From Candidatus Saccharimonadales bacterium (GTDB lineage: Bacteria > Patescibacteriota > Saccharimonadia > Saccharimonadales > 2-12-FULL-41-12), in the NCBI GenBank assembly GCA_025451045.1, contig JANWLD010000001.1, positions 471,468 to 535,467 on the forward strand: a stretch of DNA of 64,000 nucleotides. Direction: 5' to 3'. How positions within the stretch are numbered: the stretch's first letter is position 1; every line of letters starts with the position of its first letter. Below are positions 18,810 to 41,511 of the stretch, piece by piece. Position numbers and translations under genes: made by a program. The notes below the pieces were generated by a model that saw nothing but the letters and a program-made list of their open reading frames with translations, was not told the origin of the DNA and made no database searches.

Positions 18810-19664
18810 ATGCCGATTAAGACTTACAAACCGACTACTCCCGGCCGACGAGGCATGACTACGCAGGATTTTGACACCATTACCGCTAAAAAGCCGATCA
18901 AGTCACTTTTGGCTGTCAAAAAGCAAAAAAGCGGGCGCAATAACCAGGGCCGGATAACTACCCGGCACAAAGGCGGCGGCGCTAAGAAATTTTATAGGAT
19001 TGTCAATTTTAAATTGGCTGAGGAAGCAAAACTAAAGGTTGAGCAGATTGAGTACGACCCGAACCGCAGCGCCCGTATAGCACGAGTAAAGGACGAAAAT
19101 GGCGCATACCATTACATCTTGGCTTCTTCCAAGATGAAGCCGGGTAAGACCATCAAAGTCGGCGAAGAAGCGCCGATTGACAGCGGTAACCGTTTGAAAC
19201 TGGCTAATATCCCGATGGGCAGCACTGTCCATGCTATTGAGCTTGAACCGGGCCGCGGTGCGCAACTCGTCAGAAGCGCTGGCGCCAGCGCCCAGCTGAT
19301 GGCCAAAGACAATGGACAGGCACAACTACGTTTGCCAAGCGGCGAAGTAAGATTGGTGAACCTTAACTGTATGGCTTCTATTGGTGTAATTGGCAATGAG
19401 CAGCACCAGAACATCAAGGTTGGCAAAGCTGGCCGTAGCCGGCACAAAGGGATCCGTCCAAGCGTACGAGGTGTAGTAATGAATGCGGCCGACCACCCGC
19501 ACGGTGGTGGTGACGGCGGGCGTCACGGTATTGGCGGCGGTAAGAACCACGGCGCAGCTCCGAAAACGCCTTGGGGCCAGAAAACTCTCGGCTTTAAGAC
19601 CAGGCGCCGAAAGAGCACAACCAAATACATTCTAAAGAGTCGCCATGCGAGCAAGAGGAGATAA
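18810..19664 (+). CDS. rplB: 50S ribosomal protein L2
   Basis: 284 aa with L2 hallmarks (VMNAADHPHGGGDG). Confidence 0.97.
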   Translation: MPIKTYKPTTPGRRGMTTQDFDTITAKKPIKSLLAVKKQKSGRNNQGRITTRHKGGGAKKFYRIVNFKLAEEAKLKVEQIEYDPNRSARIARVKDENGAYHYILASSKMKPGKTIKVGEEAPIDSGNRLKLANIPMGSTVHAIELEPGRGAQLVRSAGASAQLMAKDNGQAQLRLPSGEVRLVNLNCMASIGVIGNEQHQNIKVGKAGRSRHKGIRPSVRGVVMNAADHPHGGGDGGRHGIGGGKNHGAAPKTPWGQKTLGFKTRRRKSTTKYILKSRHASKRR

Positions 19665-21253: not shown

Positions 21254-21378
21254 TGTTCCGCTTCACTACACACCAGGTTATAGGTTACAGGTTACAGGTT
21301 ATAGTTAAGACAAACCATCTAGCCCCTTGCACCTATAGCCTGATCCCTAAAGCGACCGAAGGGAGCTTTCCATGCTGA
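21253..21378 (+). repeat. Family A structured repeat, copy A1 (divergent), containing an open 41-codon mini-cistron
   Basis: The ATG overlaps the rpsC TGA (TGATG). The frame is open to a TGA at 21376-21378, overlapping the rplP ATG (21372) by 7 nt. Peptide: [41 protein letters not shown]. It is homologous to the copies at 24072, 25606 and 29631. Confidence 0.85.
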
Positions 21379-21788
21379 TTCCGAAACGCCAGAAGCACCG
21401 ACGAGTGATGAAAGGTCGTATCAAAGGCCCTGCTACCAGTGGCAATACCATTGCCTTTGGCAGCTATGCGCTGCAGTCTATGGGCCAAGACCGGGTTACC
21501 AGCCGCCAGATAGAATCAGCTCGCCAGGCGATGACCCGCTATATCAAACGAGGCGGTAAGATCTGGATAAGGATTTTCCCTCATACTCCTGTTACTAAAA
21601 AACCGCTGGGCCTTAAGATGGGCGGCGGCAAAGGCTCTCCTGAATACTTTGTAGCAAAGGTACGCAAAGGTACAGTATTGTTTGAAATGCAAGGCGTTTC
21701 CGAGGAAACAGCCCGCGAAGCCATGAGGCTGGCTGCCCACAAATTACCGATAAAGACCAGGTTTATTGTCAGAGAGGGCGAAACATGA
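21372..21788 (+). CDS. rplP: 50S ribosomal protein L16
   Basis: 138-aa L16 translation ([11 protein letters not shown]...). Confidence 0.97.
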
Positions 21789-21919
21789 ATCCCGTAGTAG
21801 ATCTCCTAGAACTGAAGTTGAGCAAGCTGTTTTTGTATGGCCGAGTGTCGGTACGTTATTCAGTTTTGTATATTTTTAATCTTCCTTATGGAATAACTAG
21901 GAGGCTCACTACAGGATGA
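21785..21919 (+). repeat. Family B structured repeat, copy B1, containing an open 44-codon mini-cistron
   Basis: ATGA overlap with the rplP stop and ATGA overlap with the rpmC start. Peptide: [44 protein letters not shown]. Terminal arms 21791-21809 and 21897-21915 are complementary, and the 3' arm contains the rpmC AGGAGG. Confidence 0.85.
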
Positions 21920-22116
21920 AAATAGCCGAGATACGCAAATTAGAGACCAATCAACTGATAAAAAGCGTGGATGAAGTAAGGGTTGAAATAGCCAAACTGC
22001 GACGCAGTATCCATATGGGTGAAACCAGCAATGTCCGGATGATACGCGCCAAGCGCAAACAGCTAGCTCGTATGCTAACCGTTATGAGCGAACAACTTGA
22101 GAAGGAGAAAGTATAA
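21916..22116 (+). CDS. rpmC: 50S ribosomal protein L29
   Basis: 66-aa L29-like translation in the conserved position. Confidence 0.93.
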   Translation: MKIAEIRKLETNQLIKSVDEVRVEIAKLRRSIHMGETSNVRMIRAKRKQLARMLTVMSEQLEKEKV

Positions 22117-24066: not shown

Positions 24067-24071
24067 TATAG

Positions 24072-24191
24072 ATGTTCCGCTTCACTACACATCAGGTTAC
24101 AGGTTATAGGTTACAGGTTATAGCCAAGATAAACTTTCTAACCCCTAGCCCCTATAACCTAACCCCTAAAGCGACAGAAAGGAGCACCTAA
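24072..24191 (+). repeat. Family A structured repeat, copy A2, containing an open 39-codon mini-cistron
   Basis: The ATG lies 5 nt after the rpsN TAA, and the TAA at 24189-24191 abuts the rpsH ATG. Peptide: MFRFTTHQVTGYRLQVIAKINFLTPSPYNLTPKATERST. There is a perfect 10-bp stem between 24101-24110 and 24151-24160. Confidence 0.88.
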
Positions 24192-25120: not shown

Positions 25121-25255
25121 ATGAGTCCCGTAGTAGATCTCCAAGAACATTCGTTGAATAAACTGTATTTAACTGATAAGCTGTCTATCCATAGTCCAGC
25201 TTTATTAATTTCTAATGCTCTTTGCGGAGCAACTTGGAGGCTCACTACGGGATGA
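25121..25255 (+). repeat. Family B structured repeat, copy B2, containing an open 44-codon mini-cistron
   Basis: The ATG directly follows the rplF TAA, and the TGA overlaps the rplR ATG (ATGA). Peptide: MSPVVDLQEHSLNKLYLTDKLSIHSPALLISNALCGATWRLTTG. Terminal arms 25126-25145 and 25233-25252 are complementary. Confidence 0.85.
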
Positions 25256-25605
25256 GTAGATTAGTGTCAAAGCGTAATAACATAACCAGGAGAAAGAACC
25301 GGGTCAGAACCATGATCCGGACTAATTCAGGGCATCCCCGCTTATCCGTTAATATCAGTAACCGGCATATCCTAGCCCAGGTGATAGATGACAGCGCCCA
25401 TAAGACATTGATATCAGTCTCAACCGAAAAGCAGGCCTATAAAGGCAATATGACTGAAAAAGCCGGCTTGGTGGGCAAGGAAATTGCTGAAAAAGCCAAA
25501 GCCAAGAAAATCAAACAAGTTGTTTTAGACAGGGGCTCTAGACTGTATCATGGCCGTATCAAAGTCCTGGCAGACGCGGCCCGCGAGGAAGGATTGGTAA
25601 TATAG
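25252..25605 (+). CDS. rplR: 50S ribosomal protein L18
   Basis: The L18 translation starts MSRLVSKRNNITRRKNR. The ATG at 25252 is preferred over the track start at 25222 because it sits 11 nt after GGAGG, matching the homologous B1/rpmC junction. Confidence 0.93.
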   Translation: MSRLVSKRNNITRRKNRVRTMIRTNSGHPRLSVNISNRHILAQVIDDSAHKTLISVSTEKQAYKGNMTEKAGLVGKEIAEKAKAKKIKQVVLDRGSRLYHGRIKVLADAAREEGLVI

Positions 25606-25725
25606 ATGTTCCGCTTCACTACACATCAGGTTACAGGTTATAGGTTACAGGTTATAGCCAAGATAAACTTTCTAACCCCTAGCCCCTATAACCTAACCCC
25701 TAAAGCGAAAGAATGGAGCGCATAA
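25606..25725 (+). repeat. Family A structured repeat, copy A3, containing an open 39-codon mini-cistron
   Basis: The ATG directly follows the rplR TAG, and the TAA overlaps the rpsE ATG (TAATG). Peptide: MFRFTTHQVTGYRLQVIAKINFLTPSPYNLTPKAKEWSA. A 115-nt stretch is identical to A2. Confidence 0.88.
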
Positions 25726-29630: not shown

Positions 29631-29753
29631 ATGATGTTCCGCTTCACTACACATCAGGTTACAGGTTATAGGTTACAGGTTATAGCTAAGACAAACCCTC
29701 TAACCCCTAGCCCCTATAACCTAACCCCTAAAGCGACCGGAGGGAGCTTCTGA
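29631..29753 (+). repeat. Family A structured repeat, copy A4, containing an open 40-codon mini-cistron
   Basis: ATGATG directly follows the rpsK TAG, and the TGA overlaps the rpsD ATG (TGATG). Peptide: MMFRFTTHQVTGYRLQVIAKTNPLTPSPYNLTPKATGGSF. Confidence 0.88.
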
Positions 29754-40463: not shown

Positions 40464-40500
40464 CCAAACTAAAAACACCCTAACGGGTGCTTTAGTTTGG
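40464..40500. terminator. Long perfect hairpin (candidate bidirectional terminator) overlapping the tRNA-Tyr CCA end
   Basis: CCAAACTAAA (40464-40473) pairs with TTTAGTTTGG (40491-40500), with an inner CACCC/GGGTG stem. It lies between the convergent membrane-protein gene and tRNA-Tyr. Confidence 0.55.
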
Positions 40501-40583
40501 TGCAGGGTGTAGGATTCGAACCTACGAAGGCATAAGCCATCAGATTTACAGTCTGACGTGTTTGACCGCTTCACTAACCCTGC
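40498..40583 (-). tRNA. tRNA-Tyr (anticodon GTA), CCA encoded
   Basis: A hand fold of the reverse complement gives acceptor GCAGGGT/ACCCTGC, anticodon arm TCAGA-CTGTAAA-TCTGA, a long variable arm, T-arm GTAGG-TTCGAAT-CCTAC, and ACCA at the 3' end. Confidence 0.9.
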
Positions 40584-40656
40584 CCAGTAGTAGACTTTTG
40601 AGTATAATTGCTTTAAGCAATTATAAAGTAAAACTTTTCAAAAGCTCACTACTGGG
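40583..40656 (+). repeat. Family B-type imperfect hairpin, copy B3 (non-coding), in the tRNA-Thr/tRNA-Tyr spacer
   Basis: The 5' arm CCCAGTAGTAGACTTTTGA (40583-40601) and 3' arm TCAAAAGCTCACTACTGGG (40638-40656) reproduce the B1/B2 stem core GTAGTAGA / CTCACTAC. The interior carries the palindrome TATAATTGC...GCAATTATA. Confidence 0.75.
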
Positions 40657-40681
40657 CCTGCTAGTTATTAACTTGTTAATA

Positions 40682-40758
40682 TGGAGCCACCTGTCGGATT
40701 CGAACCGACGACCTACTGTTTACAAAACAGCCGCTCTAACCAACTGAGCTAAGGTGGC
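40682..40758 (-). tRNA. tRNA-Thr (anticodon TGT), CCA encoded
   Basis: The reverse complement GCCACCTTAGCTCAGTTGGTTAGAGCGGCTGTTTTGTAAACAGTAGGTCGTCGGTTCGAATCCGACAGGTGGCTCCA folds as a canonical cloverleaf. Confidence 0.92.
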
Positions 40759-40835: not shown

Positions 40836-40859
40836 GACTTGGGGTATGCTATATCAATA

Positions 40860-41444
40860 ATGATAACAAGAAATACTTTAATTAAACTATATATCGAAGA
40901 TAAACTATCAATGACGGAGATAGCTAAAAAGCTTGGCTGTTCGGTTCACAAAATTACCTACTGGATGGATATTTACGAAATAAAAAGAAGAAGCATAAGC
41001 GAAGCCATTTATCAGAAAAATAATCCAAATGGCGATCCATTTAAAATTGCTACAATTAAATCCATAAAAAAAGCAAAATTATATGGGCTGGGTATAGGTT
41101 TATATTGGGGTGAAGGTACTAAAGCAAGTAAAAATTCTGTTAGGCTGGGGAATTCCGACCCTATGTTGTTGAATATTTTTATCAAATTTCTTCAAGAATG
41201 TTTTAATGTTGATAAAAAAGATTTAAGATTTGGACTGCAGATTTTTTCTGATATTGATCCAACCGATGCGTTAAAATATTGGTCAAGTGAGCTTGACGCA
41301 AAACTTTCACAATTTTATAAGGTTCACGTTACTATATCGGGGTCTGTTGGCACCTATCGTCACAAAAGCAAGTATGGAGTCGTTACAATTTATTTTAATA
41401 ATAAAAAGCTACGGGATATACTTGTGGGCATGTTGCCGCGATAG
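40860..41444 (+). CDS. HTH + LAGLIDADG-like homing-endonuclease-family protein (free-standing)
   Basis: The N-terminal sequence LSMTEIAKKLGCSVHKITYW is HTH-like. LYGLGIGLYWGEGTK resembles a LAGLIDADG motif, followed by an LLNIFIKFL-type helix. The ATG at 40860 is chosen over the track TTG at 40839. The stop lies 10 nt inside tRNA-Thr(GGT). Confidence 0.65.
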   Translation: MITRNTLIKLYIEDKLSMTEIAKKLGCSVHKITYWMDIYEIKRRSISEAIYQKNNPNGDPFKIATIKSIKKAKLYGLGIGLYWGEGTKASKNSVRLGNSDPMLLNIFIKFLQECFNVDKKDLRFGLQIFSDIDPTDALKYWSSELDAKLSQFYKVHVTISGSVGTYRHKSKYGVVTIYFNNKKLRDILVGMLPR

Positions 41445-41511
41445 CTCAGTTGGTAGAGCGTTTGCATGGTAAGCAAAAGGTTCCCGGGTTCAAATCCCGG
41501 TCGCGGCTCCA
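41435..41511 (+). tRNA. tRNA-Thr (anticodon GGT), CCA encoded
   Basis: GCCGCGATAGCTCAGTTGGTAGAGCGTTTGCATGGTAAGCAAAAGGTTCCCGGGTTCAAATCCCGGTCGCGGCTCCA folds as a cloverleaf. By my hand fold there is one extra nucleotide in the variable region. Confidence 0.85.

Follow-up and report, generated by a model that had tools for sequence, protein, structure and literature searches.

What occupies the spacer between the tRNA-Thr and tRNA-Tyr genes of this Saccharimonadales (TM7) segment? The 64-kb stretch of DNA that was analysed, referred to here as the window, carries an rpoA with 70 to 89% identity to the rpoA of 80 MAGs, almost all of them named Saccharibacteria, Saccharimonadales, or Patescibacteria. 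A preliminary description had read the hairpin in the tRNA spacer (B3) as the third copy of a REP-like family that is also found at two gene junctions of the ribosomal-protein operon (B1 and B2). We asked whether B3 is a REP element spread by a RAYT transposase, a structured RNA that serves the tRNA transcript, a different kind of mobile element, or a chance hairpin.

Hairpin B3 and its two relatives in the window

The tRNA genes lie on the minus strand in one putative transcription unit, which comprises a promoter-like site (40857-40828), tRNA-Thr (TGT; 40682-40758) as the upstream gene, tRNA-Tyr (GTA; 40498-40583), and a terminator-like hairpin (40493-40472). The spacer between the two genes is 98 nt long and contains B3, a short-type hairpin element that was placed on the plus strand at 40583-40656 by its sequence, its fold, and the covariance model R1 (see below). 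As proposed previously, positions 40583-40601 pair with positions 40638-40656. RNA folding yielded -34.2 kcal/mol for the plus strand and -36.2 kcal/mol for the minus strand (z of about -8), and none of 200 shuffled sequences folded as well. From the outside inward, the hairpin is made up of the outer stem CCCA/TGGG, the core, the inner stem CTTTTGAG/TTTTCAAAAG, and a single inner hairpin. The 5' half of the core, GTAGTAGA (40587-40594, plus strand), was located by pattern match, and the pattern used for the metagenome search held its alignment columns constant; the 3' half, CTCACTAC (40645-40652, plus strand), was located by pattern match and in alignment A3. The inner hairpin P2 (40603-40625, plus strand), evident from sequence and fold, consists of the palindrome noted earlier, TATAATTGC (40603-40611) and GCAATTATA (40617-40625), around the loop TTTAA. 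B3 has thus kept P2, whereas P3, the other inner hairpin that family members typically carry, is absent or has degenerated. The short-type element contains no ORF, and B3 is not translated.

The claim that B3 adjoins the 5' end of tRNA-Tyr proved exact, with an overlap of a single base: G1 of the tRNA (40583) is the terminal base of B3. B3 had also been called antisense to the tRNAs. This is right for the strand on which the element was placed, but the label means little because the element is near-palindromic and the other strand, the one present in the tRNA transcript, forms a slightly more stable fold. On the far side of tRNA-Thr, a 201-amino-acid ORF (40839-41444, plus strand) shows a weak N-terminal helix-turn-helix (Pfam E of about 1e-3); a LAGLIDADG-like motif (LYGLGIGLYWGEGTK) was noted on visual inspection. 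This ORF had no Pfam family at 1e-3, and its 3' end shares 10 nt with the beginning of a tRNA-Thr(GGT) gene (41435-41511).

B1 (21790-21916) and B2 (25126-25252) are long-type copies on the plus strand, located at the rplP/rpmC and rplF/rplR junctions, respectively, and each of them reads as a mini-ORF of 44 codons. Counted singly, GTAGTAGA occurs three times in the window and CTCACTAC four times. The combined pattern GTAGTAGA...GCTCACTACNGG retrieved B1 (21794-21915), B2 (25130-25251), and B3 (40587-40655) and nothing else, confirming the core that had been described as common to the three copies; 0.00 matches were expected in shuffles of the window. The shortness of the shared core is the only point in favor of a hairpin that arose by chance and resembles B1 and B2 over 8+8 nt by coincidence. 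This explanation can practically be dismissed, and chance similarity of the three copies is already refuted by the pattern expectation (three matches observed), by the more than 100 homologous copies found elsewhere, and by the covariance-model E value of 2e-16.

Two details of the stem had to be redrawn. The pairs flanking the core are complementary, as had been stated; what had been taken for a paired insertion in B3 consists instead of two compensatory substitutions, one at position 4 (C:G to A:T) and one, from T:A to C:G, in the pair lying outside the stem. Likewise, the A-C/G-U/A-C triple belongs to a conserved core, although its drawing as three mismatches is not the sole option. It can be redrawn as two Watson-Crick pairs (A10-U88 and G11-C87) between one-base bulges on opposite strands, and this two-bulge form was preferred by RNAalifold in an alignment of 107 copies.

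Size, architecture, and covariation of the family

Metagenomes were scanned for further copies with the pattern GTAGTAGAYYT-N(37-97)-ARGYTCACTAC. At least 120 loci were recovered, and about 115 of the 120 matches listed were genuine hairpins of 60 to 130 nt with one architecture, which bears out the view that B1, B2, and B3 belong to a single dispersed family. Its consensus reads CCCR-GTAGTAGA-CTTTCG(A/C)G, hairpin P2, hairpin P3, C(T/G)CGAAAG-CTCACTAC-YGGG. Most copies measure 67 to 93 nt, and a few long types measure 113 to 160 nt. The terminal inverted repeats of about 20 bp are imperfect, and their ends are asymmetric in a fixed way (AGA opposite CTC). The core takes the conserved two-bulge (or triple-mismatch) form, and both strands are able to form the same two-bulge core. 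In all copies, GTAG (40587-40590 in B3) is paired with CTAC (40649-40652 in B3).

In the alignment columns outside the search pattern, 97.4% of the cells of the 107 copies were paired, compared to 30 to 51% in slid controls, and 146 cells carried double changes, compared to 39 in shuffles. The variable interior consists of exactly two hairpins, forming a three-way junction, in 97 of the 107 copies (median z of -3.6). The invariance of the core in alignment A3 is partly built in, since the search pattern fixed those bases; copies retrieved by the covariance model alone kept the core with single-base changes. The odd core is thus retained while the flanking pairs covary, as the preliminary description had claimed from three copies, and a ligand that reads both the sequence and the shape of the hairpin is therefore plausible. 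Covariance model R1, which was built from the 107 copies with B3 among them, gave B3 68.1 bits at an E value of 2e-16, B2 42.9 bits, and B1 36.5 bits; copies in loci L051 and L013 of related genomes scored 48.7 and 42.2 bits, respectively.

The family did not match known entries. Rfam searches of B3, the B1/B2 region, and 20 element-bearing loci returned only tRNAs and noise at both gathering and permissive thresholds. A consensus-like copy had no blastn match in plasmids and phages, the core pattern had 0 matches in viral contigs, and our literature search found nothing relevant on the hairpin family. For the two top-scoring metagenome copies, the homologs of the neighboring genes were named almost entirely Saccharibacteria, Saccharimonadales, or Patescibacteria; judged from these names, their hosts are Saccharibacteria.

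Some copies deviate in size or arrangement. Minimal elements were seen in L172 (452-490), where 39 nt comprise the closing stem and one short hairpin, and in L039 (11369-11396), where the cores stand nearly back to back within 28 nt. One copy in L193 (165-249) has GTAGTAGA as its left and CTCACTAC as its right flank; from this arrangement, it appears to be a nested insertion within the core of a second element.

Target-site duplication and mode of transposition

The element inserts with a 4-bp duplication of the loosely palindromic target G|YWWR|C. With the outer stem boundary fixed at CCCR/YGGG, 98 of 119 copies were flanked by direct repeats of 3 to 5 nt (exactly 4 nt in 73, 5 nt in 12, and 3 nt in 13), compared to about 9.5 expected with permuted flanks. 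The rebuilt target is palindromic: among 70 copies, G preceded the duplication in 38 and C followed it in 40, and the duplication started with Y in 65 and ended with R in 68. Such symmetry would be expected if a symmetric transposase complex made a staggered cut. B3 is flanked by CCTG on the left (40579-40582, the complement of tRNA-Tyr nucleotides 2 to 5) and on the right (40657-40660), both repeats being assigned from the sequence and the family-wide duplication statistics. For B1, TGAA is duplicated at 21786-21789 and 21917-21920, and for B2, TGAG is duplicated at 25122-25125 and 25253-25256.

Three pairs of filled and empty sites were exact, the empty site consisting of the flanks plus one repeat. 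The rplP/rpmC junction reads ...ATGAAA... in L006 and L008 and ...A TGAA, B1, TGAA AAT... in the window; the rplF/rplR junction reads TAA ATGAATAG in L003 and TAAA TGAG, B2, TGAG TAG in the window. The third pair lies downstream of tilS, with CATCTGTTATAAT in L201 and CATC TGTTA, element, TGTTA TAAT in L104. At the B3 site, it is absence of the element that is shown in L003 and L004, the spacers being too diverged to align. Among the metagenome loci, no empty alleles were found. The insertion downstream of tilS (L104, 1915-2020; L201, 2540-2560) lies in an extended -10-like sequence, TGTTATAAT, and the 5-bp duplication TGTTA rebuilds the -10-like motif on the right side.

B3 entered its site as an insertion with a 4-base duplication; it is therefore a jumping-gene remnant and neither a REP/RAYT element nor a dedicated tRNA signal. 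Most likely, it is a copy of a small nonautonomous transposable element (MITE) that is widespread in Saccharibacteria (TM7). The terminal inverted repeats, the duplication of fixed length, and the presence or absence at orthologous sites agree with this assignment, as does the small size (60 to 160 nt overall) without a transposase of its own, the short type being free of ORFs. A MITE copy is ordinary in kind; the family itself appears to be undescribed and unusually structured. A DDE-type transposase acting in trans would bind the conserved ends in a symmetric complex and make a cut with a 4-bp stagger. At this locus, B3 went into the very start of the tRNA-Tyr gene, with duplication of CCTG. 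The gene is intact despite this position because the terminal base of B3 (G1) and the duplication rebuild its 5' end, an example of how an insertion at a tRNA gene start can be harmless; B1 and B2 show the same rebuilding at ATGA gene junctions. B3 would then be transcribed passively on the minus strand, as a stable hairpin in the tRNA-Thr/tRNA-Tyr precursor, and would be removed by normal tRNA end processing.

A parent element or transposase bounded by these ends was not found in the approximately 2.2 Mb of loci examined. Solo arms or pairs of arms 0.14 to 4 kb apart yielded only random one-mismatch matches and a few long or mini variants. Pfam analysis of 129 neighboring ORFs showed no transposase family among the best 25 families. 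IstB matches did occur among these ORFs, alongside three DnaA matches, and they probably reflect the shared AAA+ ATPase domain.

Hairpin-forming MITEs of bacteria include Correia/CREE of Neisseria, ERIC/IRU of enterobacteria, and RUP of pneumococcus. Like these, the B family is noncoding, about 60 to 150 bp long, bounded by terminal inverted repeats and a target-site duplication, intergenic inside transcription units in both orientations, and variably present between relatives. It differs from Correia and RUP, which duplicate TA, in its 4-bp duplication at G|YWWR|C, and from all three in its end sequence, its covarying two-hairpin junction interior, its Saccharibacteria host, and the absence of an identified partner IS. 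The Rickettsia palindromic elements (RPE) persist within expressed regions because they retain an open reading frame. B1 and B2 are similar as palindromic mobile elements that are tolerated in expressed regions and open for translation; unlike RPE, they lie between genes at ATGA overlaps as separate mini-ORFs and not in frame within proteins.

A possible source of the transposase is suggested by IS1380/piggyBac-type DDE transposons, whose duplications of 4 to 5 bp and A/T-rich palindromic, TTAA-like target core resemble those of the B family. The left inverted repeat (IRL) of ISEcp1 was confirmed as CCTAGATTCTAC, and its CC(C/T)AG start equals the start of the B-family ends. The ends resemble each other over no more than about 5 bases, the ISEcp1 left end being the only IS1380 end compared, and a tblastn search with the ISEcp1 transposase against all loci examined (about 2.2 Mb) found nothing. 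An IS1380/piggyBac-type enzyme may be taken as a tentative lead.

The duplication also bears on the earlier assignment of B3 to the REP/REPIN elements, according to which a RAYT (IS200/IS605-type Y1) transposase recognizes the hairpin as a folded single strand that bears a GTAG head and spreads it. The resemblance is real, in that the element is an extragenic, imperfect palindrome containing GTAG, usually just after stop codons, with stem irregularities that are conserved while the stem covaries. However, the GTAG does not form an unpaired 5' head but is paired inside the stem, and REP-type insertion leaves no duplication, whereas the B family shows a 4-nt duplication, a palindromic target, and exact empty sites. 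HUH/Y1 enzymes, including the hairpin-reading transposases, are not known to make such a target duplication. The elements are also longer than REPs (60 to 130 nt versus the usual 20 to 40 nt), and their density is low, with 3 copies in the 64-kb window and 3 full copies plus one mini-copy in 1.3 Mb of relatives. No inverted doublets were seen in the window or in these 1.3 Mb. In line with the earlier statement that the window has no RAYT gene, no Y1_Tnp match was present among the matches listed for the ORFs of the 64-kb window, nor was there one in the best 25 families of the 129 neighboring ORFs. With GTAG in the stem, a target duplication, and no Y1 transposase found in these listings, the REP/RAYT reading fails, and we regard it as very unlikely.

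Besides the lack of a parent element or transposase in the approximately 2.2 Mb examined and the partly built-in invariance of the core, two observations argue against the MITE reading. First, the strong covariation of the stem and the conserved two-hairpin interior go beyond what simple recognition of double-stranded DNA ends explains and hint at a single-stranded phase (RNA or single-stranded DNA [ssDNA]) or a second function. Second, the L013 copy sits at the same nucleotide as B3 but lacks a right-hand repeat. A rival reading would be transposition via a folded ssDNA hairpin by an undescribed enzyme that makes a 4-bp duplication, with the two-bulge core and the inner hairpins as the recognition structure. 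The ability of both strands to form the core, the covarying stem, the inner hairpins that are kept regardless of orientation, and the lack of a classical transposase among the best 25 families of the 129 neighboring ORFs would fit this route; yet there is no enzyme candidate, hairpin-reading Y1/HUH transposases are not known to leave a duplication, and ordinary DDE complexes would account for a palindromic target. We consider this route improbable. Taken more broadly, the fact that the core and three-way junction are kept on either strand and whatever the orientation could point either to folded-strand transposition with a 4-bp duplication or to a portable RNA/DNA structural module that has been co-opted, a reading that we hold to be unlikely but not negligible. 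If true, recognition of a folded strand by an enzyme that leaves a 4-bp duplication would amount to a mode of transposition not yet described, and a co-opted module could, for example, provide tRNA and operon transcripts with a hairpin for processing or insulation.

Distribution, orientation, and neighboring inserts

Among relatives of the window (80 loci, 1.3 Mb), the motif is patchy and was found only in L013, in L051, and as the mini-copy in L039. The L013 copy lies at the tRNA-Tyr 5' end and has arms nearly identical to those of B3 and an unrelated interior; the L051 copy adjoins tRNA-Trp. The tRNA-Tyr gene is without an element in L003 and L004, the closest relatives of the window, and in L008, which is among the closest to L013. 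Copies are mostly intergenic, often 4 to 30 nt after a stop codon. Relative to codirectional neighboring genes, 26 copies were in the opposite and 13 in the same orientation (p = 0.053).

This distribution allowed us to weigh a functional structured RNA, that is, a processing, insulator, or stability hairpin (e.g., an RNase III-type site) in the tRNA precursor and operon transcripts, for which mobility would be secondary. The covariation in P1, the three-way junction conserved in 97/107 copies, the position of most copies 4 to 30 nt past a stop codon, and the shared tRNA-Tyr 5' position of B3 and L013, with conserved arms and unrelated interiors, speak for such a role. In contrast, copies occur in both orientations, and the better-folding strand is independent of the direction of transcription (no difference between the orientation groups; p = 0.53). 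Wobble pairs, counted from the RNAalifold output, have about the same frequency on either strand, there is no Rfam family match, none of the 59 tRNAs in the metagenome loci abuts a copy, and the closest relatives do without the hairpin at tRNA-Tyr. We give this explanation little credence and retain the MITE assignment.

Saccharibacteria genomes are tiny and tightly packed. Our literature search found no description of Saccharibacteria mobile DNA at this scale, and we know of none. The core pattern or the covariance model provides an easily searched marker with which insertion polymorphism between strains could be followed, the responsible transposase sought, and odd spacers in compact operons accounted for. 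For annotation, such hairpins should not be read as regulatory RNAs or REPs.

The long B subtype of B1 and B2 was also seen in L111 (7965-8091 and 4100-4226), L195 (3681-3804), and L089 (2164-2284). Its site is always TGAA/TGAG (or TTCA) within an ATGA stop/start overlap, and both orientations occur. Its gene-sense frame is always open and encodes the mini-ORF MNPVV(D/S)L...R(L/S)TTG*, and the terminal A of the element together with the duplicated TG rebuilds the downstream ATG.

Other inserts were noted between ribosomal-protein genes. Four of these in the window (21254-21371, 24067-24191, 25606-25712, and 29631-29752), termed family A, are about 115 to 125 nt long and 77 to 97% alike. The closest relatives lack them and have junctions of -4 to +15 nt. 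Each has an ATG at or just past the upstream stop, a mini-ORF starting with MFRFTTHQ..., a G.U-rich hairpin of GGTTA/TAACC repeats, and a 3' end at which GGAG and a stop closely precede the next ATG. Comparable N termini (M-x-R-F/Y-x-x-H-Q) were found in inserts of L044, L051, L054, and L013. Inserts of about 100 to 300 nt that look unrelated occur at other ribosomal-protein junctions of other Saccharimonadales MAGs, namely, L051 (at least 11 junctions), L019 (8 junctions), L005, L015, L029, L037, L038, L041, L072, and L073. Several of them end in a GGAG Shine-Dalgarno sequence, and some share the module GAGCAGCC(C/A)GAG...GATTCATTC...CGCGNTGAGNNNNNA.

Variation was also observed next to the tRNA genes of relatives. 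In L051, an incomplete second copy of the 3' end of tRNA-Trp (GGTACCAGGATTCG...; 19251-19326) lies between the B-like element and tRNA-Trp, which points to a rearrangement or to integration long ago. L009, L010, L011, L012, L020, L022, and L042 share another spacer module, about 100 nt long, upstream of tRNA-Tyr. It contains hairpins, e.g., CTACC-N-GTGAG-N-GGTAG, followed by an extended -10-like sequence (TGTTACAAT/TGTTATAAT) about 20 to 35 nt before tRNA-Tyr.
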